A stretch of DNA of 32,000 nucleotides from Methanothermobacter thermautotrophicus str. Delta H (GCF_000008645.1 NC_000916.1:1200001-1232000), one strand, 5' to 3'; positions 8,411 to 29,227 are shown, numbered from the stretch's first letter. Numbers and translations are program-made. The notes: generated from the sequence alone by a model not told the origin.

Positions 8411-8926
8411 TTAACCTTCAAAGCACGGAATACAAACCATCCTACCATTCTTTACTCGTGCACGGTGCTCTGAGACGGGTTCACCACACTCTGCGCATAT
8501 GATGGACCCATATATCCTTGCCTCCTCTGGAGGTTTCTCTGAAACATCCCTGACCTCAAAGAGGTCATGTGGATCCATTTCAAGTATCTTCTCTGTCAGT
8601 TCAGCCCTGTCCGTAACCCCGAGTTCCTTCATGAGCTGATCCATTGGTTTTTTAAGTGATATCCTGATTCCATCGCCTGTTTTCCTGTTGAAGAATGTGT
8701 AAACATGTTTTCCGTAATCCCTGAATATCAGGTTGCCCTTTCCAAAGGTGCACCCAGTCATGAACTGGATGGCGTCTATGCTGCAGCTGTCATTCTCAAC
8801 AACCGCCACTATCTCCTCATCCTCTGACCTTCCAAATCTTTCAGCTACGATCTCACCGACCTTGTATCCGAGGGCAGTGCCGGCACAGGAGTGACCGTGA
8901 AATCCAACTATATCCTCATAATCCAT
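8411..8926 (-). CDS. FmdE-family protein with C-terminal zinc ribbon (cytoplasmic)
   Basis: It has the FmdE signature [17 protein letters not shown] and a C-terminal CAECGEP...CIPC. The ORF track starts at 9007. The ATG at 8926 is preceded by a strong GGGAGGGTGAT site at 4 nt, whereas 9007 has none. Confidence 0.8.
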
Positions 8927-9095
8927 AACTATCACCCTCCCTATCTCTGGATCACGATTCAGATATAGGTGATGGTGGTAAACCATGTTTTCATTATTAC
9001 CTTTCATTTAAATCAACAAAAAAATGTAATAATATATCTTTATATTGTAAGAAGAGATTAGTTAACACGAAACAAATTAGAGGGAGGTGAAATGG

Positions 9096-11888
9096 ATGAG
9101 GAGATTATTCATGGTTTCAGTTCTTTTCCTTCTGGCCATGCTTACTGGTTCAGTGGCAGCTGCAGACAACGCAACCTGCGAGGTTGGTGTCCTTGTCAGC
9201 TACCAGTACAGCGATGATAACGGTAGGATCAATCCGACCCTCGAAATCACGGATTCAGGTACAGGCATAGAATACAACCGGACCTACGACCCATCCAGTG
9301 GTTATACAAAGCTGATCTTCCAGCATTCAAACATAAGCGCGGCAAACCTTACACTGACTGTGAGGGCACCGGGCTACGTTACCGTCGAGAGAAGGTTAAA
9401 CCTCACACCGAACCCCATGGACCCCCGGCACACCGGGTACTATGCAAGCATAAACCTTGTTCTAAATGCAACCGAACCATACCGGATCGGTAGAGAGTTG
9501 ACAGAAAAAGCAGATAAGCTCCTGAACTTCACAGGGAAGGGAGAAGTTCTTGTTATAACAACAGCCGGCCTTGTGAAGTACCATAATATGACTACAGAGG
9601 ATGTCCTGGAGGGAATACTTAACAGGGGAGGTGGCCTGATAAGCTACGGCAGAGCTAACCTCCTTACAGTCCGAAAAACAGCCACAGATCCTCTGTGTAC
9701 GGCTTTCATAGTGAGGAAGGGTAACGATCTTCTCATGGCATTCTACAGGAACACCACACTGGTGTACCTTGGAACGGTGTCCCAGAACATGAGCTCTGCC
9801 CAGTGGAACAACCTTACATCAAAGCTGGGGGATGATGCCTTCCCCTTCGCAAGCCTTGCAAATGCATGGGCAGCTGGAGCACCAGCAGATCTGCTCAAAC
9901 AGGCCGCATTCCATGGACACATGTGCCTGGGTACCATAAGCGGATATGCCATGAGTAAAACCATCTACATGTACTATCCACCTATCCAGGACTGGTCCAC
10001 CGGTTCACCCATAGAGATAACCAGCTACGTCACCATAGGTGTTCCCGGCGGCTCAGACGATGATGCCCTCATACTTGCACTCGATAACACCCCCGGGAAG
10101 AGGTCATACCTCGGCTTCGATACAACCGGTGCCGGTGCAGAGGACAGTATGGTGGGCTTCATAAGGTGGAACTCAAGGACAAACACCGGTACCCTTGTGG
10201 TCATGAAGTTCGACCAGCAGGCACTCATAGATACCTACAAAAGGGAGACCGGAGTATCAATGGTTCAGGAACTCAAATTCAATGCCTGGCTCGTTAAAAA
10301 GGTCACAGAGAACCCTGCCTCCATTGTAACTATCGTTAAGGAACTCGACAACCTGACAGCCGACCAGTACTACTACCTGGCAGGAAGGGAGGTCAACTAC
10401 AACCAGGTAAATGAGACCCATGGACTGGACATGAACTACATAAACAGCCTCAATCTGCCAAACGCCACCAGGGCAAATGTGAATGCAACATGGAATCCTG
10501 TGAGCTATGCTGAGCTCCGTGAAATCGGTAGAAGGGCCGCTGAAATGGCTAAGGAGATATTCCTGGCTGAGAGAGGAATAAACCTTGAAAGGGACGATCT
10601 CAATGTAGCTGTCCTCACATCAGCCGGTTACGTCTACCTGAACGGCACCCCGACCGATGGCTGCTACGACGGAATATTCAGCGTTCTTGGTTCAAGGCTA
10701 AGCAGGAAAAACCTTCTGCCAGTCCACAGCCCATTCTACAAACCACTATGGTTCACCTTCGTCTTGAAGGGTGCTGATGGGAAAACACTGGACTCAGTGC
10801 ATATAACCTACAATCCACTGACAGGTGAACTGAGTGCCGGAGCAGGGCCGGATGGTTCACGGGTTAACGATATAGGTCCCGCAGCCCTCAATAACGCGAC
10901 AAGGGATAACGCCAATTCCGCGATATTCGGTAGCTCCTACTTCAGCATTGAGAGCATAGCCAATGCCTGGAAGTACAGCATCCCCTATGACCAGCTGGTA
11001 ACCTTCCTGTTCCACAACCATGTCTGTCCGGGTGTCCAGCCAGGATTCTTCATCACCGAGTACGCCCTTGAGAACTATCCACTTGCAGCCGGCCAGCAGT
11101 ATCAGTGGTTCGGGACAAGCATATACTGCAAGGATGACGCCCTCCTCTACCTCATGGGTGTTAGTCCCGGTACCGGGACCTACTTCGCCAAGAGGGTCCT
11201 CCAGGAGGAACTCGAATCCCCGATGGTACCCGGTGGAAGTGAAGAGGGAATACTCATAGTCTGGGATCCAGTTAAGAAGGTTGGTAAGGCTGTGATGATA
11301 AGCTTCAGGTGGCCAGAGTTCGACCTCAGCGACTGCACCACAAGGAACGCCATGTTCGAGAAGTGGGCTGCCGCCTTTATAATGCTCTACAGTGGCCAAA
11401 CACCATCCTACATGACGTCCCCAATGGTCCTCACAAAGGAGGTTGAGAAGTGGATAACCGAGGACGAACTCAGGGTGATACAGAGCGGTGCAAACGGTAA
11501 CCCCCTGGCATACCTGCGTTCAATACCTGCACGAAACCTTGAGGACCTTATACCTGTGAACAACGGTGGAACACCAGTTAACACAGGAGGAAACCAGGGA
11601 GGTTCCCATGGTGGTTCAACTGGAGGTGTTCCTTCAGGTTCAGCTTTCACAGGACATGCAGGTTATTCACCGGGTGTGGATACTGCGGCTTCACCTGCAG
11701 AGGTGGGCGCTGCATCCTCAGTGTCAGAGGAGCCTGCATCAGCCCCTGCAAAGGCCTATGAGGTTAAGAATGTGACCTCAGGTGCCAGGGGCGGTGACTC
11801 CTCATGGTACGTCTACGGTATCGTGGGTGTCCTTGTTGCCGCTGGTCTTGTGGCCTTCGGATTCCTCAGGGGCGGAGCAGGAAAATAA
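9096..11888 (+). CDS. Secreted, C-terminally membrane-anchored protein with two FmdE-like domains
   Basis: GGGAGGTGA lies 5 nt upstream of the ATG at 9096. There is a signal peptide (MRRLFMVSVLFLLAMLTGSVAAADN) and a PEGA/Ig-like N-terminal module (LTVRAPGYVTVERRLNL). Two FmdE-type HxH-x-C-x-G motifs are present: FHGHMCLG at nt 9909-9932 and FHNHVCPG at nt 11010-11033. Many N-x-S/T sequons occur. The C-terminus has a G/S-rich linker, KAYEV, and a TM helix. Confidence 0.8.
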   Translation: MRRLFMVSVLFLLAMLTGSVAAADNATCEVGVLVSYQYSDDNGRINPTLEITDSGTGIEYNRTYDPSSGYTKLIFQHSNISAANLTLTVRAPGYVTVERRLNLTPNPMDPRHTGYYASINLVLNATEPYRIGRELTEKADKLLNFTGKGEVLVITTAGLVKYHNMTTEDVLEGILNRGGGLISYGRANLLTVRKTATDPLCTAFIVRKGNDLLMAFYRNTTLVYLGTVSQNMSSAQWNNLTSKLGDDAFPFASLANAWAAGAPADLLKQAAFHGHMCLGTISGYAMSKTIYMYYPPIQDWSTGSPIEITSYVTIGVPGGSDDDALILALDNTPGKRSYLGFDTTGAGAEDSMVGFIRWNSRTNTGTLVVMKFDQQALIDTYKRETGVSMVQELKFNAWLVKKVTENPASIVTIVKELDNLTADQYYYLAGREVNYNQVNETHGLDMNYINSLNLPNATRANVNATWNPVSYAELREIGRRAAEMAKEIFLAERGINLERDDLNVAVLTSAGYVYLNGTPTDGCYDGIFSVLGSRLSRKNLLPVHSPFYKPLWFTFVLKGADGKTLDSVHITYNPLTGELSAGAGPDGSRVNDIGPAALNNATRDNANSAIFGSSYFSIESIANAWKYSIPYDQLVTFLFHNHVCPGVQPGFFITEYALENYPLAAGQQYQWFGTSIYCKDDALLYLMGVSPGTGTYFAKRVLQEELESPMVPGGSEEGILIVWDPVKKVGKAVMISFRWPEFDLSDCTTRNAMFEKWAAAFIMLYSGQTPSYMTSPMVLTKEVEKWITEDELRVIQSGANGNPLAYLRSIPARNLEDLIPVNNGGTPVNTGGNQGGSHGGSTGGVPSGSAFTGHAGYSPGVDTAASPAEVGAASSVSEEPASAPAKAYEVKNVTSGARGGDSSWYVYGIVGVLVAAGLVAFGFLRGGAGK

Positions 11889-22918: not shown

Positions 22919-24904
22919 TCACCTCCATATCGTTAATTGATGAATGCCTGGACTCAATAGCCGAGTAGGGTGCCGGCAGTGTATATGATGAAGGAGGCTA
23001 TCCAGGCCACGAACACTGAGTATAACGGTGAGAAGAGGGCCCACCTCTTGCCTTACTCCTTCTTTATATAATATCAGTGTCGCCAGGCAGGGTGTATAGA
23101 GCAGCACGAATACCATGAACGACAGAGCCTCCAGTGGTGTGAAGGCGCCCTGTATGCTTGCTGCGATATTAGCTGCCCCGTGGACCGTTCCGAAGGTGCT
23201 TATGACAAGCTCCTTTGCCGCGAAACCAGATAGAATTGCGACCGCGGACTGCCAGTCACCGAATCCCAGGGGATGGAATATGGGTGCCATGATGGAGCCC
23301 AGGGTCCCGAGTATGGACGAGGAAACATTTCCACCCGGGAACCCTGAAAGGAACCATATGATCACCGAACCTGCAAATATTATGGTCCCGGCCTTCTTTA
23401 TGAACTGGATGCCTCTGTGGTACGTGTGAATCAGGAGAGTCCTGGGCCTCGGAAGCCTGTATGGTGGAAGCTCCATCAGGAAGAGGAAACCTTCACCCAT
23501 GACCACTTCACCCAGCAGACGGGCGGTTATGATCGCCACTGCAATTCCCAGGATGTAGAGGAAAAATATGACCCATCCCTGATAGATGAGGGGGAAGAGG
23601 GCTGACGTGAAGAGCACGTAGACAGGGAGCCTGGCACTGCATGACATGAAGGGTATCATGAGGCTTGTGAGAATCCTCTCCCTCTCAGATCCTATGGTCC
23701 TTGTTGCCATTACCCCCGGGACACAGCACCCGAAGCCAAGCATCATGGGGATGAATGACCTGCCGCTTAGACCCGCCACTGAATTCATTACACGATCCAT
23801 GACAAAGGCTGCCCTTGCCAGGTACCCTGAATCCTCAAGGAAGGTGAGGAGGAGGAAGAGTATGAAGATGTTCGGTGTGAAGACGAGGACCGATCCAACA
23901 CCTCCTATCACACCATCTGCCAGGAGGGACCCTGCAGCTGAGTCTCCAAGGGCGCCCTGAACTGCTCCTGCAAGGTGGGAAACACCAGCATCAATCAGCT
24001 CTGTAAGTGGAGCCCCTGCAGTGAAGGTGAGCTGGAAGATCAGCCACATCACCCCCAGGAGAATCGGGAGCCCCAAGTACCTGTTAAGTACAGCGCGATC
24101 TATAAGTTCAGAGACCGTTACCCTGTCAAGGGAGGGTCTCGTGAGGGACCTCTCCAGGAGTCCCTCTATGAGGCCGTACCTTGCATCTGACACCAGGATG
24201 TCCGCATCAGCAGAGTGCTCCTCCTCAAGGATCCTTCTGATCCTCTCAAATTCCTTGATGAGGTCCTCACCAACCATTGAGGCAACCCTTTTATCCCCTT
24301 CAAGAAGTTTTATTATGATCCATTCAGCTGGAAAATCTGCCTCAACGTCTTCAAGAAGTTCCCTGAATTCCTTAATAGCATCTGACCTCAAAAATTCATA
24401 TCTGATCTGTGGAGGGTTACTATTCACCTGTCTTATGGCTGCTTCAAGCAATTCATCCTGATTTCCTTCAATGGCCTCCACCTTTATGACCGGCACCCCC
24501 AGCAGTTCCTCAAGTCTCTTCTCATCAAGCCTGTATCCCTTCCTCTCTGATTCACGGTTGAGGTTCACTGCGATGATGGTGTTGAGGCCGAACTCGAGGA
24601 TCTGAAGTGTGAGGTAGAGGTTCCTCTCAAGATTGGATGCATCAACAACACTGATTATGAGGTCCGGTCTCTCATCAAGGAGATAATCAACGACCACCTC
24701 CTCCTCGGGAGATCCCGCTGTTAGACTGTAGGTTCCTGGGAGATCTGTAATTTCAATATCATTTTCCCTGAAGTTCAGGTATCCTGTTTTCTTTTCAACA
24801 GTCTTCCCTGGCCAGTTTCCAACGTGCTGATTGAGTCCCGTAAGGTTATTGAAGAGGGTGCTCTTTCCAACATTCGGGTTTCCTGCAAGTGCTATTCTGA
24901 GCAT
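22919..24904 (-). CDS. feoB: Ferrous iron transporter FeoB (C-terminus apparently frameshifted near 23053)
   Basis: The G-domain motifs are GNPNVGKST and DLPGTYSL, followed by a long polytopic membrane domain. The canonical last helix is encoded in the +1 frame and ends at 22954 (see findings). Confidence 0.9.
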   Translation of the reverse strand: MLRIALAGNPNVGKSTLFNNLTGLNQHVGNWPGKTVEKKTGYLNFRENDIEITDLPGTYSLTAGSPEEEVVVDYLLDERPDLIISVVDASNLERNLYLTLQILEFGLNTIIAVNLNRESERKGYRLDEKRLEELLGVPVIKVEAIEGNQDELLEAAIRQVNSNPPQIRYEFLRSDAIKEFRELLEDVEADFPAEWIIIKLLEGDKRVASMVGEDLIKEFERIRRILEEEHSADADILVSDARYGLIEGLLERSLTRPSLDRVTVSELIDRAVLNRYLGLPILLGVMWLIFQLTFTAGAPLTELIDAGVSHLAGAVQGALGDSAAGSLLADGVIGGVGSVLVFTPNIFILFLLLTFLEDSGYLARAAFVMDRVMNSVAGLSGRSFIPMMLGFGCCVPGVMATRTIGSERERILTSLMIPFMSCSARLPVYVLFTSALFPLIYQGWVIFFLYILGIAVAIITARLLGEVVMGEGFLFLMELPPYRLPRPRTLLIHTYHRGIQFIKKAGTIIFAGSVIIWFLSGFPGGNVSSSILGTLGSIMAPIFHPLGFGDWQSAVAILSGFAAKELVISTFGTVHGAANIAASIQGAFTPLEALSFMVFVLLYTPCLATLILYKEGVRQEVGPLLTVILSVRGLDSLLHHIHCRHPTRLLSPGIHQLTIWR

Positions 24905-24906
24905 TT

Positions 24907-25134
24907 TTAATCCCTTACCCCTATCCTCGATGCTTCTCCCTTACGGATGGAAAAGGGATGGCCCTTCACCCTAACCTTCAGGGGGTCTCCCAGGGGTGCA
25001 GAGTTCTCAACAGTGACCCTGGATCCCCTTAATAGCCCCATAACAGTTAATCTTTGCCTTATATCCCCTGGAAGGTTAACGGATGTCACAGTCACAGTCG
25101 TGCCTTCCTTTATTCTGTCGAGTGTTGTTTCCAT
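24907..25134 (-). CDS. feoA: FeoA
   Basis: 75-aa SH3-like FeoA pattern (RQRLTVMGLLRGSRVTV). Its stop lies 2 nt before the feoB start. Confidence 0.85.
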   Translation of the reverse strand: METTLDRIKEGTTVTVTSVNLPGDIRQRLTVMGLLRGSRVTVENSAPLGDPLKVRVKGHPFSIRKGEASRIGVRD

Positions 25135-25143
25135 GATACCACC

Positions 25144-25205
25144 TTTAGGAAATCCTAAAATTTAGTTACACCTAAATCATATATAAAGTTTTAGGTTTAC
25201 CTAAA
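25144..25205. promoter_or_regulatory. feoAB promoter with three 16-bp palindromes flanking the TATA box
   Basis: The palindromes are TTTAGGAaaTCCTAAA (25144-25159), TTTAGTTacACCTAAA (25161-25176) and TTTAGGTttACCTAAA (25190-25205). The TATA element CTTTATATA on the minus strand lies at about 25180-25188. Confidence 0.7.
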
Positions 25206-25218
25206 CCATGTTGCAGTT

Positions 25219-25229
25219 AAAAAATAAAA
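25219..25229 (-). terminator. Oligo-T tract (TTTTATTTTTT on the minus strand) after the cobN-like stop
   Basis: Read directly from the sequence. It lies 9 nt downstream of the TGA at 25238-25240. Confidence 0.5.
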
Positions 25230-25237
25230 GAATAGCC

Positions 25238-28200
25238 TCAGTATCTTCCCTGGAAGAAGTAACCCACTCCAAGGAGACACACAAGGCTTATAACACCAAT
25301 TATAGCATATATGGGAGTCTGAGTGCTTGAAGAGGTGCTGTTGGTTGATGCTGCAACCTCATAGGCCTTTCCAGAACCTTCAGAAGCTCCAGAGTTTTCT
25401 GAAACCTCTGATGACTCTAAAGCCTCATCTGACGATGAACCTGATGCTCCGCCTGCATTCCCTGCGGAACCTGAAGAAGGTTCACCTGTCTCACCGATTC
25501 CATCCCCATTCACTGAGCCCGGCTGTGAATCCCCAGAGCCAGGAACATCAATGGACTTCCCTGTGGCTGCAGCCATTGCAGCCGCAAATTTTCTGAGGGC
25601 CGCCTGGTTGAGGGATGATAGCTTCACCACCCAGCTGTTGAAGACCATGTTGGCACATGTGTGGTGACAGCAGACAACACCATACTCATTAACCGCCGCG
25701 ATGTACTCATCGGCAAGCCTCTGCAGTGTAGCTGAATCTGTGCTCCAGAGGCCCCTGCGGCTGGCCTCAAGGAGCCAGGCTACCGTTGAGGCATAGGAGT
25801 AGGGCTGAAGACTCTTAAATCTGCTGCTTACCTGAGGATCAAAGACATAGGTCTCTGCAACCTTCTGCCACATCCAGTCCTGGACCAGATCAGGGGTGAC
25901 TGCACTCCAGCCGAATAGATGTCCTATCTCCTTGGATATCTGATGAGCACCTGAGAATCCCTGATTCAGCATTCCCTCAATCCATTTCGGGTTGTAGGTC
26001 CTTGTTCTGAGTTCTGCTGCAATGAAATCTGCCAGTGTCTCCATTCGTGGTGTGAACCTTGTATTGGCGATGTATGAGGCAACATTCCTTCCTGAAATGG
26101 TCCTTGCAGCCATCGTGAGACCCCCAAGGTACTGGTAAACGTCGTCGTTGTCAAGAACACCGTAAACACTGTCCCTGACCTGTACTGTTGCATCCACATT
26201 TGATAGCTGCTTCATGAAGACCTCCTTTGCATCAATGGCGTATATGTCCTTTCCATAGATGAATCCCATATGATTCAGGTAGGTTTCAAGGAGCTGTGAC
26301 TGATTATCCCACTTTGCAGTTGATTCAACCACTTCAGGTAGCCCGGTACCGTAACTTCCAGGGGCACTGCCAAATATCCTTGCACCGGCAAGTGTCTCCG
26401 CTGCCTGTAAACCCCTGGCAGTATAATTCGCCAGGTCTGCAAGGTAATGTTTCCTGAGGTAGTTGCCTTCCACCGGTTCATCCAGTTTCATGACAAGCCT
26501 TATCGCCTCATCCATCCTGTCGATACTGTAGGCAAATGTGTCTCTGAACAGTCCACTGATAGTGACCAGAACATCGATTCTGGGCCTTCCAAGCACTTCC
26601 AGGGGTGTTACACTTATTCCTGTGAATCTTCCTGATTTATCCCATACCGGTTCAGCTCCGATGAGTCTCAGAACCATTGCTATTGTCTGACCACTGGTCC
26701 TCATGGTCTCAATTGCCCAGAGAACCACCCCAACAGATTCGGGATATCTGCCATTCCTTGAAAGGTAATCTGCAATGAGGTCATCTGCCATCTTCTTACC
26801 GATCTCCCATGCAGCCCTATCAGGTGCAAGTCTGGGGTCAAAGGAATAGGAATTCCTTCCCGTCGGCAGGAGGTCGGGTATCCTTATGGGATCAGCCCCC
26901 CGACCCGGTTCAACAAAACGTCCCTCAAGGGCCCTCAGAAGGTTTGTGATCTCCTGGTCAGTGGCAAGTTTCTCTCTTACGGCATTCCGGAACTCTGTGT
27001 TATTCCTCGATGCTGGGTCAAAGCTCACAATTGCCTCCACCATTGCATCAAGGAGCTCCCCGCTAAGGGGTTCCCCGAAGACATGTAACCCGTAGGGTAT
27101 CAGTGTTGCTGATAGCTCATCAAGCCTGTGCTCAATTCGATCAAGGGCCTCTTCAAAGGAAGCATTGAGGTCAATGTTAAGTTCCCTGTGAAGGTCCAGT
27201 TTAACCGTGAGATTTCTGATTTCCTCAGCGATTATCAGCTTTCTCTGGGGATCCTCAGACGTATGGTAAAGGTTAATTTTGTGTTCAAGTTCAGATAGAT
27301 CCCCGTAAAGTTCACTTACCACCATAGGGGGGATGTTATGGTTTATGAGGACCGCGTACCCACGCCTCTTTGCCTGAGTCCCCTCACCCGGGTTGTTTAC
27401 GATGTAGGGGTAGATATGTGGCAGGTCACCTATCATCACGTCGGGCCAGTCAAGGGATGATAGACCAACTGATTTCCCTGGTAACCATTCGAGGGTTCCG
27501 TGTGTACCAAGATGTATAACTGCGTTGAAGTTTTTCTGAAGCCAGAGATAGAATGCAAGGTACTGGTGGTGCGGTGGGAGTGTTGTTGAATGTATGAGGT
27601 CAGCTGCATCCTCGCCGAATCCGCGCATTGGCTGGGGGCCGAGGAATACGTTGCCAAGCATAACACCCGGGATCACTATGCTGCCATTGTAGACCATGAC
27701 GTTTCCAGGGGCAGGTCCCCATGTCGCTGTTATGTTATTTCTCAGGGTTTCTGGCAGTAGACTGAACCAGTTAAGGTATTCAGATACTGGAACTGTTACT
27801 GCGCCGGCCCTGACAACCTTCTCAAGTTCACCCGGAGCCCATGAACCCACATTCAGGCCCGGCCCGAGGAGTATGTTTATCACCTCTGCAGTGGATTTTT
27901 CCTCAACATTGTAGCCAGCACTCCTTAGCGCCCTCAGTATGTTGCTGATGCTCTCTGGTACGTTGAGGTAACTCGCACTGATACCATCCTTACCCCCACC
28001 AATGTTGTAGTATATAAGGGCTATCTTCTTCTCCGCATTTGGAAGTTCCCTTAACTTTATCCAGTTGATCAATCTCTCTGTGAGCCTCTCTATCCTTTCA
28101 GGAATCGGAACATAGTATGTATAACGCAGCCCTGTCTGAGGGTCTGTCTCCTCAACTCCGCCGCCGATCATGACTGGCTCTATCCTTCCGTCGATCTCTG

Positions 28201-29227
28201 GAAGTGCTATCTGCCAGTACACCTCAGATGAAAGTCCTGATATGCTCTCGTTCCATGCCCTGAGATTTGATGCATAGACCGCAGCAATTGCGGGTAAATC
28301 AAGTTCCGTGAGGATTGCTGTGGAGTTCAGGGGATCACCGCTGTATAAATTGAAGCCCATGCATGTTATGAGACCGCTGATCCTGGGAGTCCTGTTACCA
28401 TCCAGGAAGAAGTTCTCAATAAGGTTCCGCTTTGTAGCTGTGTCAGCTGCAAAGCCAAGGATCACATTGTAACCCTTTCTCTCAAGGCTCTCAAGTATGG
28501 CGGTGTGCATTCTCATGTCGCTTCCACGGTAGTATGTATCGAATGTGATTATGCCCACCCATGGTTTTCCTGCCCTGTAGTGGCCGCTCTGAACATACCA
28601 GGAGTAGTAACGGTCCCATGCTGTGAACTGTTCGCCGGCGTCGGGGTGATATACAAATGATTTCACCGCGGGAATGGCTGTTACATTCTCCTCATTTTTT
28701 AGCTGCATTCCAGCATCCCTCAGAAGGAGGAGCATCATTCTCCGGAAGTTCTCGGGGCCTCCCTGATCCCAGATGTACTTCACTGTTGCGTTGTCCGCAC
28801 CCACACGGGGATCATCCTTGAATGTGTTGCCGGTTCCTATGGCAATTATTTTGCTGGCCCCCGTAACATTAAGGATTGGATTGACCTTCGCCAGGGTGTT
28901 TGGAGAACTTATCATCTGAATGAGAATCACGTCAGCCTTTCTACCCGCCTCCAGTGCCGCCATGTCTATCTGAGGATCGTTCCTTAGAAGTTCATCGTTT
29001 GTGAACATTGAAAGATTGAATCTGTAGCCGTCCCGTCCTGCAAGTTTATAGCCTTCCACTATTGCCTTTGTACTCGAAGTTGACCCTGTGATTATGAGAA
29101 TACTGTAATGGGAAGAATTCTGCTGAATCGCACCCTCTGTGACGTTGCTGCTGTTATCAGCCGCTGAAACACCTCCCGCAAGCATGATTGTCATGAGTAG
29201 AATCACTGGAATAACTGATGTCCTCAA
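25238..29227 (-). CDS. CobN/Mg-chelatase-H-family protein with signal peptide and C-terminal membrane anchor (predicted cell-surface)
   Basis: 1329-aa ORF. The TTG start lies 5 nt after a GGAGGTG site. There is a signal peptide (MRTSVIPVILLMTIMLAGGVSAADN) and the CobN/BchH hallmark HLGTHGTLEWLPGK. Many N-x-S/T sequons occur. The C-terminus has a G/S/E-rich linker, KAYEV, and a TM helix (IYAIIGVISLVCLLGVGYFF). Confidence 0.85.
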   Translation of the reverse strand: MRTSVIPVILLMTIMLAGGVSAADNSSNVTEGAIQQNSSHYSILIITGSTSSTKAIVEGYKLAGRDGYRFNLSMFTNDELLRNDPQIDMAALEAGRKADVILIQMISSPNTLAKVNPILNVTGASKIIAIGTGNTFKDDPRVGADNATVKYIWDQGGPENFRRMMLLLLRDAGMQLKNEENVTAIPAVKSFVYHPDAGEQFTAWDRYYSWYVQSGHYRAGKPWVGIITFDTYYRGSDMRMHTAILESLERKGYNVILGFAADTATKRNLIENFFLDGNRTPRISGLITCMGFNLYSGDPLNSTAILTELDLPAIAAVYASNLRAWNESISGLSSEVYWQIALPEIDGRIEPVMIGGGVEETDPQTGLRYTYYVPIPERIERLTERLINWIKLRELPNAEKKIALIYYNIGGGKDGISASYLNVPESISNILRALRSAGYNVEEKSTAEVINILLGPGLNVGSWAPGELEKVVRAGAVTVPVSEYLNWFSLLPETLRNNITATWGPAPGNVMVYNGSIVIPGVMLGNVFLGPQPMRGFGEDAADLIHSTTLPPHHQYLAFYLWLQKNFNAVIHLGTHGTLEWLPGKSVGLSSLDWPDVMIGDLPHIYPYIVNNPGEGTQAKRRGYAVLINHNIPPMVVSELYGDLSELEHKINLYHTSEDPQRKLIIAEEIRNLTVKLDLHRELNIDLNASFEEALDRIEHRLDELSATLIPYGLHVFGEPLSGELLDAMVEAIVSFDPASRNNTEFRNAVREKLATDQEITNLLRALEGRFVEPGRGADPIRIPDLLPTGRNSYSFDPRLAPDRAAWEIGKKMADDLIADYLSRNGRYPESVGVVLWAIETMRTSGQTIAMVLRLIGAEPVWDKSGRFTGISVTPLEVLGRPRIDVLVTISGLFRDTFAYSIDRMDEAIRLVMKLDEPVEGNYLRKHYLADLANYTARGLQAAETLAGARIFGSAPGSYGTGLPEVVESTAKWDNQSQLLETYLNHMGFIYGKDIYAIDAKEVFMKQLSNVDATVQVRDSVYGVLDNDDVYQYLGGLTMAARTISGRNVASYIANTRFTPRMETLADFIAAELRTRTYNPKWIEGMLNQGFSGAHQISKEIGHLFGWSAVTPDLVQDWMWQKVAETYVFDPQVSSRFKSLQPYSYASTVAWLLEASRRGLWSTDSATLQRLADEYIAAVNEYGVVCCHHTCANMVFNSWVVKLSSLNQAALRKFAAAMAAATGKSIDVPGSGDSQPGSVNGDGIGETGEPSSGSAGNAGGASGSSSDEALESSEVSENSGASEGSGKAYEVAASTNSTSSSTQTPIYAIIGVISLVCLLGVGYFFQGRY

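Follow-up and report, generated by a model that had tools for sequence, protein, structure and literature searches.

Why should a methanogen keep, back to back with an ordinary FmdE gene, a second gene whose product carries the FmdE domain twice and appears to be sent out of the cell? The question is raised by a 32,000-nucleotide stretch of the Methanothermobacter thermautotrophicus str. Delta H genome (GCF_000008645.1, NC_000916.1:1200001-1232000; hereafter the window, with all positions counted from its first letter), in which two divergent genes at 8411-11888 encode a small FmdE-family protein and a much larger one of 930 residues. To our knowledge, no function has been assigned to FmdE since it was named in the 1990s. 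The large protein, we find, is built around two tandem copies of a module that itself has two parts, here called X plus FmdE. From four things observed, namely its architecture, its internal duplication, the conservation of its ligands and its gene linkage, we lean modestly towards a role as an extracytoplasmic component of trace-metal uptake, one that would bind metal and hand it over.

A duplicated X-FmdE module

The duplication is clearest in profile comparison, where the first module (X1 and FmdE-like domain 1, D1) aligned with the second (X2 and D2) over 285 columns (hhalign probability 99.7%, E = 1.9e-25), and X1 aligned with X2 by itself at 98.1% (E = 9e-14). The FmdE part is recognised by Pfam FmdE (PF02663), which matched the large protein in two stretches (3.5e-22; 79.4 bits against a gathering cut-off of 22.9), the first at residues 275-404 of an alternative 933-residue form. 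An earlier note on this DNA had read two FmdE-like copies about 365 residues apart from their signatures alone; both internal domains indeed match the family model above its gathering score, and the motifs, FHGHMCLG (H273) and FHNHVCPG (H640), lie 367 residues apart. Because a phmmer search of each internal FmdE domain against PDB sequences returned nothing, the relation is shown through Pfam, through hhalign against the small FmdE protein (95% probability for D1, 93% for D2) and through that small protein itself, which aligned with PDB 2GVI, 2GLZ and 3D00 at E ~1e-11, with both His, the Cys and the distal Cys in register, plus the C4 ribbon.

An AlphaFold2 model of the 930-residue protein, built from an alignment of 85 homologues (predicted local distance difference test score, pLDDT, 84.3; predicted template modelling score, pTM, 0.82), gave the FmdE-like 2GLZ as its best PDB match in Foldseek. 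A model of X2 alone reached pLDDT 90.8 and matched nothing in the PDB by Foldseek (best E 0.7). That X might itself be a degenerate FmdE copy was hinted at by a common G-[KR]-G-N-L motif and by a borderline Pfam match in one distant paralogue; this found no support, as hhalign gave at most 7% and Foldseek no match, and X is left without a family.

In solved FmdE structures, Zn or Ni is coordinated by a His-x-His-x-Cys motif together with another Cys some 40 residues further on, at the bottom of a groove about 20 Å wide (PMC2954224). By alignment, the ligand positions of D1 and D2 correspond to this site in 2GLZ (Desulfitobacterium) and 2GVI (Thermoplasma). The four-ligand set is complete in D2 (H640, H642, C644 and C678); D1 has H273, H275 and C277, with S320 at the position of the fourth Cys, followed by Asp-Asp-Asp. 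Among the 85 homologues, which share 35-85% overall identity, the His-x-His-x-Cys ligands of both domains and S320 are kept in 84 and C678 in all 85, whereas the protein's four other Cys show no such conservation. Not every member of the family has the complete site: 3D00 (Syntrophus) is without two of the ligands (PMC2954224). Solved members are cytoplasmic, dimeric proteins of 150-200 residues, often with a C-terminal zinc ribbon; the large protein differs from them in carrying two copies in one predicted exported, glycosylated and anchored chain, in having each copy preceded by an X domain that lies outside Pfam, and in the change from Cys to Ser at the fourth ligand of D1.

Two starts are available to the large gene, a GTG at 9087 (933 residues) and an ATG at 9096 (930 residues), the latter with GGAGGTGA 5 nucleotides upstream. 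The 930-residue protein is 100% identical to NCBI WBF05871 (the Delta H form is AAB85823, UniProt O27400); it is already in public databases under a generic name and is not a new sequence. Only two hydrophobic segments were found in it, residues 2-24 (MRR, a hydrophobic core, then AAA/DN) and 902-928, and these two ends uphold the signal peptide and C-terminal anchor proposed in the earlier note. The density of N-glycosylation sequons that it had reported is likewise real: there are 18 N-x-S/T sites against 8.2 ± 2.5 in shuffled sequences (2.2-fold, none of 2000 shuffles reaching 18), with 0-2 in each of the cytoplasmic neighbours. The sequons fall in the beta-sandwich, X1, X2 and the linkers, with none in D2 or in D1 before residue 419. 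The proposed immunoglobulin (Ig)/PEGA-like module stands as a fold but not as a family assignment: AlphaFold2 places a beta-sandwich at residues 25-123 (pLDDT near 90), while Pfam gives no PEGA or Ig match to it, so that 'Ig-like' is a description of the fold only. Of the 85 homologues, 82 have Y888 and 84 have E889 in the stalk that precedes the C-terminal helix. An NCBIfam scan of the whole protein found no match, the curated CTERM models (archaeosortase-type, PGF-CTERM) included.

As predicted from these features, the protein is most likely a type-I, N-glycosylated cell-surface protein. The view that FmdE is not known as an exported domain holds for the literature, in which we found no paper treating these proteins as exported, but not for databases, which contain many exported FmdE-domain proteins. 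The orthologue of some M. thermautotrophicus strains is annotated in two separate pieces, of 766 and 137 residues, and a paralogue is split in Delta H as well (377 residues); the split annotation is either real gene decay in culture or a sequencing or annotation error.

The small gene lies in a minus-strand open reading frame (ORF) at 8411-9007 of 198 residues, within which an ATG at 8926, preceded by GGAGGGTGAT (Shine-Dalgarno-like in the minus-strand reading), gives 171 residues, matching the 170-171 of its orthologues. Its FmdE domain and zinc ribbon, both named in the earlier note, are found by Pfam (FmdE 1.2e-39, 135.8 bits; zf-dskA_traR 5.9e-10); a hydropathy scan showed no hydrophobic segment, and the family is very large, with more than 3371 matches in archaea and bacteria. 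With the 171- and 930-residue starts the divergent spacing is the 169 nucleotides first stated. The only well-conserved block in this gap, between the window and the orthologous loci L001 and L002 (L numbers denote genomic loci), is the TATA-like TGTAATAATATATCTTTATATTGTA at 9025-9049, probably the B recognition element and TATA box of the large gene; a search of the gap for a metal-regulator operator found no convincing palindrome, just weak A/T palindromes and the TATA-like block. In Methanobacterium, the genes around orthologues of the small FmdE-zinc-ribbon gene (L082/L083:2655-8500; L080:6683-7402) encode DUF4013 membrane proteins, a flavin reductase, a CbiA/ParA-like ATPase and a CMD-family protein. 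Near bacterial X-FmdE loci, too, genes of the flavin reductase, CbiA-like, CMD and TrmO_N kinds recur.

Table 1. Positions of the divergent pair, the parts of the large protein and the CobN-like/feoAB genes in the window
Feature	Coordinates	Strand	Basis
Large gene, 930 residues, double X-FmdE family; predicted exported and membrane-anchored	9096-11888	+	WBF05871 identity, AlphaFold2
Predicted Sec signal peptide, residues 1-22 (MRRLFMVSVLFLLAMLTGSVAA/ADN)	9096-9161	+	Read from sequence; hydrophobic segment 2-24
N-terminal beta-sandwich, residues 25-123, 5 sequons	9168-9464	+	All-beta, pLDDT 87-95
X1 domain, alpha/beta, residues 127-260	9474-9875	+	Homology to X2
FmdE-like domain 1 (D1), residues 264-440	9885-10415	+	Pfam, hhalign
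X2 domain, residues 471-625	10506-10970	+	hhalign of module 1 against module 2; X2-only model
FmdE-like domain 2 (D2), residues 631-820	10986-11555	+	Pfam, hhalign
Disordered Gly/Ser/Pro-rich stalk, residues 822-900, K-A-Y-E-V at 886-890	11559-11795	+	pLDDT < 50
C-terminal transmembrane helix, residues 902-928, tail of a few residues	11799-11879	+	Hydropathy 2.37; model helix 904-924
Small FmdE-family gene, 171 residues, C-terminal C4 zinc ribbon; predicted cytoplasmic	8411-8926	-	Pfam, PDB alignment
Divergent intergenic region, 169 nucleotides	8927-9095	.	Sequence; alignment with L002 and L001
Exported CobN-like protein (predicted), HmuS/BtuS type, 1329 residues; possible partner	25238-29227	-	Pfam CobN-Mg_chel, 1139 bits
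feoA	24907-25134	-	75-residue ORF between CobN-like gene and feoB
feoB	22919-24904	-	Pfam FeoB_N, Gate, FeoB_C

Gene neighbourhoods and the history of the pair

About 115 full-length homologues of the large protein were found, essentially all in Methanothermobacter, Methanobacterium, Methanobrevibacter and Methanosphaera, with several paralogues per genome and with no database name beyond 'FmdE family protein' or 'hypothetical'. We surveyed 70 genomic loci, clustering their 1033 ORFs, and counted neighbours within 6 kb of the large gene in the 58 loci where it is intact. The earlier note had suggested a survey of other methanogens, and signal-peptide-bearing FmdE homologues do sit near genes of recurrent kinds: a 207-residue CbiM-like protein and a small protein that we call c1 (40 of the 58 loci each), a second small protein, c3 (38), a MotA/ExbB-like protein (18), DUF2162 and DUF2149 (16 each), a CobN-like protein of at least 1300 residues (8 or more) and nicotianamine synthase (NAS) with a GNAT gene (6). 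FeoB is found near the large gene in 5-6 of the 70 loci, and canonical cbiMNQO genes in a few. Across PF02663 as a whole, most genes neighbour metal-ion transporters, and 13 of 208 members lie in the fmd/fwd operon (Axelrod et al. 2010, PMC2954224).

The CbiM-like protein matches Pfam CbiM at 8.5e-44 and begins with MHLPDG. It is with this terminus that NikM/CbiM proteins form their metal site. Its gene is flanked by those of c1 (about 160 residues, with a signal peptide, an invariant HPGHG, a Ser-rich stretch and a C-terminal helix) and c3 (about 162 residues, with a signal peptide, HGVDVT and a C-terminal helix), as at L003:12943-14552 and L080:3998-5546. Scans with Pfam and NCBIfam placed neither c1 nor c3 in a family. 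The predicted mature N-termini of both begin with His, and we regard the two as candidate metal relay proteins. In four Methanobacterium loci (L017, L046, L048 and L058) a canonical cbiM-PDGLE(cbiN-like)-cbiQ(-cbiO) operon stands back to back with the c1-cbiM-like-c3-large FmdE set, and there the second, CbiM-like S-component might share the CbiQO energising module.

This arrangement recalls the NikKMLQO nickel transporters of energy-coupling factor (ECF) type, whose accessory components are reportedly NikK and NikL, as Rodionov and colleagues are said to have described in 2006. As in NikKMLQO, and judged by gene context, the genes that accompany that of the M-type (CbiM/NikM) S-component are not those of CbiN/NikN but those of accessory proteins of extracytoplasmic or bitopic kind, here the large FmdE protein, c1 and c3 in 38-40 of the 58 loci. 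Unlike in NikKMLQO, CbiQ and CbiO usually lie outside the operon, and the copy in the window has no CbiM neighbour. In archaea only NikMN-type systems were found (Zhang et al. 2009, PMC2667541).

A second likeness concerns nicotianamine-type metallophores (the thermonicotianamine of MtNAS/MTH675; the staphylopine and pseudopaline Cnt systems). In 6-8 loci, Methanothermobacter included, a NAS gene (Pfam 2.5e-25) with a divergent GNAT gene stands directly upstream of large-FmdE paralogues. Unlike the Cnt systems, these loci show no Cnt-type importer, and the NAS link concerns a paralogue rather than the copy in the window; that large FmdE proteins use a metallophore is speculation.

How, then, did the window come to hold its pair of FmdE genes with no transporter beside them? 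Direct divergent adjacency of the small and large FmdE genes is confined to the closest loci, L002 (84% identity) and L001 (61%), both from Methanothermobacter-level relatives; the partnership of small and large proteins has been conserved over no more than a short evolutionary distance. In a related Methanobacteriaceae lineage (L080/L081, small protein 68% identical) the plus-strand small FmdE gene diverges from a minus-strand series of c1, cbiM-like, c3, a gap and the large FmdE gene, and the helicase of the window follows; hidden Markov models (HMMs) confirmed c1, the CbiM-like protein and c3 in this lineage at E = 7.5e-24, 1.2e-85 and 5.5e-62, respectively. Given that c1-cbiM-c3 lies between the two FmdE genes in L080/L081, the simplest reading is that the window has the layout of such a locus minus these three genes and that its pair would belong historically to a transporter locus. 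The earlier idea that the surface protein is paired with an intracellular FmdE acceptor gains a little from the adjacency in L001/L002 and in the bacterial loci L070 and L077, and loses from the three transporter genes that intervene in L080/L081 and from the absence of the pairing in the Methanobacterium, Methanobrevibacter and Methanosphaera loci.

To look beyond Methanobacteriaceae, we made an exhaustive HMMER scan of 1.84 billion representatives, which yielded only 260 relatives. Many of these are proteins of 340-400 residues with a signal peptide and a single X-FmdE module that has H-x-H-x-C and C-x-D-D motifs, and Pfam detects only the FmdE part; one cluster comes from Methanolacinia, and most of the others that were sampled come from metagenome assemblies. 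The bacterial loci that we located (L073:8001-13526, L070:7699-11017 and L077:3582-12324) encode such proteins of about 340-365 residues. On bacterial contigs the X-FmdE gene lies directly upstream of two TonB-dependent receptors, near a Peripla_BP_2/FecCD importer; in a Desulfobacterales locus it lies directly downstream of a TonB-like receptor; and on another contig it comes after FecCD, ATP-binding cassette (ABC), Peripla_BP_2, methyltransferase and cytoplasmic FmdE-zinc-ribbon genes, with a TonB receptor opposite. A tie between exported X-FmdE and systems for the uptake of metals or metal chelates thus appears to have arisen, or been kept, in unrelated envelopes. One Desulfobacterales locus has a small FmdE gene within 5 kb of the exported X-FmdE gene, and in L077 the exported X-FmdE gene is beside one for cytoplasmic FmdE with a zinc ribbon, so that a cytoplasmic/exported pairing recurs in bacteria at least once.

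Distant double-module relatives of about 820-1300 residues (P0130, P0141, P0151 and P0158, from Methanobacteriaceae where named) have lost the His-x-His-x-Cys motifs, and one motif-less relative carries long C-terminal beta-helix-like, Asn-rich repeats. These may be a branch that no longer binds metal.

A proposed role in metal uptake and its rivals

If the large protein serves in metal uptake, two His2Cys(Cys/Ser) sites would be held above the membrane on the flexible stalk and would bind a transition metal outside the cell. In most Methanobacteriaceae the metal would then be passed to the co-encoded CbiM-like ECF S-component through c1 and c3 with their N-terminal His; at other paralogous loci the neighbours are FeoAB, or else an exported, HmuS-like CobN together with DUF2162/ExbB/DUF2149. 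The copy in the window would be an orthologue that lost c1-cbiM-c3 and retained the helicase downstream and, on the divergent side, the gene for cytoplasmic FmdE with its zinc ribbon; the transporter that it supplies would then have to be encoded at another place in the genome. Inside the cell, a matching receiving role may fall to the cytoplasmic FmdE. Because CbiM is the neighbour and the solved FmdE site held Zn and Ni, the metal is most likely Ni or Co; Zn or Fe, or a metal held in a chelate, is possible.

Several points weigh against such a role. No transporter gene lies beside the copy in the window, where the HMMs of c1, the CbiM-like protein and c3 are blank, as they are in two Methanothermobacter paralogue loci, and the operon argument extends to this copy by no other route than homology and a single intermediate lineage. 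The CbiM-like partner falls below every curated CbiM cut-off (120 versus 219 bits), and its gene is usually without CbiQ/CbiO in the same operon. D1 is without the fourth Cys, and extracellular Cys/His sites could be structural Zn sites. The divergent paralogues P0130, P0141 and P0158 have no His/Cys motifs, by which part of the wider family has a role that needs no metal site, and the split gene (766 and 137 residues) of some strains hints at dispensability in culture. The surface capture of a metal or metallocofactor proposed in the earlier note is carried by the conserved ligands of both FmdE domains and by homologues in metal-uptake clusters, and not by the neighbours in the window.

Some of this evidence would also suit a surface glycoprotein whose main task in the pseudomurein envelope is structural or adhesive, its FmdE domains serving as scaffolds and any bound Zn doing no more than stabilise the fold. 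The protein is large, predicted to be glycosylated, stalk-anchored and furnished with an N-terminal beta-sandwich; there are several paralogues per genome in unrelated contexts, such as L071 among secreted beta-rich proteins; and some distant relatives lack the motifs or bear adhesin-like beta-helix repeats, while the gene is split in some strains. We nevertheless think a structural role quite improbable, given that the seven His/Cys ligands and S320 are near-invariant while other Cys vary, that the transporter linkage holds in 40 of the 58 loci and TonB-dependent receptors accompany the bacterial genes, and that the absence of sequons from the FmdE domains suggests surfaces left uncovered for a function.

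A cytoplasmic role has been raised by work on M. wolfeii, in which thermal stress raised the levels of two 'FmdE-like paralogs', A0A9E7UNA4 and A0A9E7RTD5, for which AlphaFold 3 and PEPPI predict binding to FmdE (PMC13355700). Both proteins (895 and 964 residues) belong to the exported large-FmdE family, in the clusters of P0027 and P0008, respectively, and the large protein could by extension be a stress-induced partner stabilising the canonical FmdE subunit of formylmethanofuran dehydrogenase. We consider this highly unlikely: the predicted signal peptide, sequon excess, stalk and anchor put the FmdE domains outside, away from cytoplasmic FmdE; no fmd/fwd catalytic genes occur in the window or among the recurrent neighbours at the 70 loci; and FmdE domains are known to dimerise (PMC2954224), a tendency that probably explains the predicted interaction.

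The remaining alternative turns on the CobN-like gene of the window. The surface CobN-like protein that the earlier note had placed 13 kb away is encoded by a real gene, with a signal peptide and a C-terminal helix: its hydrophobic segments are residues 1-24 and 1301-1327, its signal peptide ends in AA/ADN as on the large FmdE protein, and a Gly/Ser stalk, GKAYEV and 18 sequons complete the resemblance. It scores below the NCBIfam CobN cut-offs, and feoA-feoB lies directly downstream on the same strand (22919-29227). MTH1362/1361 were listed as FeoAB and MTH1363 as CobN, a candidate for cobalamin synthesis (Kaster et al. 2011); because the predicted location of MTH1363 is extracellular, that role is argued against, and the protein appears to resemble HmuS/BtuS rather than the CobN of cobalamin synthesis. 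The HmuS/BtuS proteins of Bacteroidota are exported, anchored CobN-like proteins that act in periplasmic haem-iron release coupled to FeoAB (PMC6460266; PMC13227078). Like the HmuS/BtuS, HmuTUV and FeoAB systems of these bacteria (PMC6460266, PMC11681262, PMC13227078), the window has a CobN-like protein predicted to be exported and anchored, followed by feoAB. The CobN part of the earlier proposal, an undescribed envelope system, is thus not undescribed, since it matches this exported class; the proposed link between CobN-like and FmdE genes fared better, with CobN-like genes at about 13 of the 70 loci and a common C-terminal tail.

That tail, [AST]YE[VIL] followed by a helix, was found among the 1033 ORFs only in large FmdE (64) and CobN-like (8) proteins. 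It takes the form [GK][KR]AYE[VI], about 12-20 polar residues and the helix (window 11751-11879 and 25238-25390; loci L001-L070) and could act as a signal for sorting or processing, or else in docking. When the protein collection was searched with a profile of the KAYEV and helix tail, just 11 short fragments were returned. The window itself has no hmuTUV-like genes (membrane protein, MotA/ExbB, DUF2149), and the link of CobN-like to large FmdE proteins rests on other genomes. In gene order, methanogen paralogue loci match hmuSTUV as CobN-like, DUF2162, MotA/ExbB and DUF2149; the Methanothermobacter paralogue locus L072 reads GNAT, NAS, large FmdE, CobN-like, DUF2162, ExbB, DUF2149, its last four genes following the hmuSTUV order of Porphyromonas gingivalis. 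Unlike Bacteroidota, these archaea have no outer membrane, TonB receptor or HmuY, and the large FmdE protein has no described counterpart in hmu operons.

On this basis the large FmdE protein might act jointly with the exported HmuS-like CobN, metals being stripped from exogenous tetrapyrroles or metallophore complexes at the surface: Fe from haem, Co from corrinoids or Ni from F430. FmdE would either accept the metal or supply the dechelating activity that is missing, and FeoAB or CbiM would take up the freed ion. The CobN-like genes lie within 10 kb of the large gene at those 13 or so loci (by tblastn), mostly on the same strand, and the shared tail, the order of genes at L072 and the roughly 20 Å groove of solved FmdE, which could take a large ligand, all speak for such joint action. 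So does the window's own CobN-like gene with feoA-feoB, a pairing shown genetically in Bacteroides fragilis, where the authors describe the dechelatase itself as still unidentified (PMC6460266). We nonetheless judge joint action unlikely. The CobN link is far rarer than the CbiM link (8 or more versus 40 of the 58 loci), the two genes of the window are 13 kb apart with unrelated genes between them, and no tetrapyrrole-binding feature was identified in the large protein. We also know of no use of haem by Methanobacteriales, which counts against a tetrapyrrole source.

Consequences for FmdE and for methanogens

Methanogenesis needs Ni for F430 and hydrogenases, Co for corrinoids, and Fe and Mo or W. 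Ni acquisition by Methanobacteriales has been described as unresolved (Kaster et al. 2011). In the searchable literature we found no functional study of the MTH locus tags or of an exported FmdE, and no description of the exported X-FmdE module, of its tandem form in Methanobacteriaceae or of its linkage to CbiM-like, HmuS-like, NAS and TonB genes. A bolder and doubtful proposal would join all these parts into an unrecognised envelope machine of Methanobacteriaceae that would free Ni, Co or Fe from environmental chelates or tetrapyrroles and bring it into the cell. Its parts would be tandem X-FmdE, an exported HmuS-like CobN 'reverse chelatase', an ExbB/DUF2149/DUF2162 module, a dedicated CbiM-like channel with two N-terminal-His relays and a metallophore of the nicotianamine type. 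The exported X-FmdE would then be, in archaea and bacteria, the extracytoplasmic counterpart of cytoplasmic FmdE, and FmdE would gain a role in handing metal over to and from chelates.

Two current readings would be corrected by our predictions, in that MTH1363 'CobN' would be extracellular and the M. wolfeii 'FmdE-like paralogs' would lie outside the cell. Methanobrevibacter and Methanosphaera of the rumen and gut have members of the family, and, if the proposed role is true, a conserved surface metal-supply protein would be a candidate antibody or vaccine target for methane mitigation. Two large-FmdE paralogues were detected as proteins in M. wolfeii (PMC13355700). A conserved, expressed and predicted surface FmdE family tied to transporter genes gives the domain a testable role and suggests new components of metal uptake in archaea.

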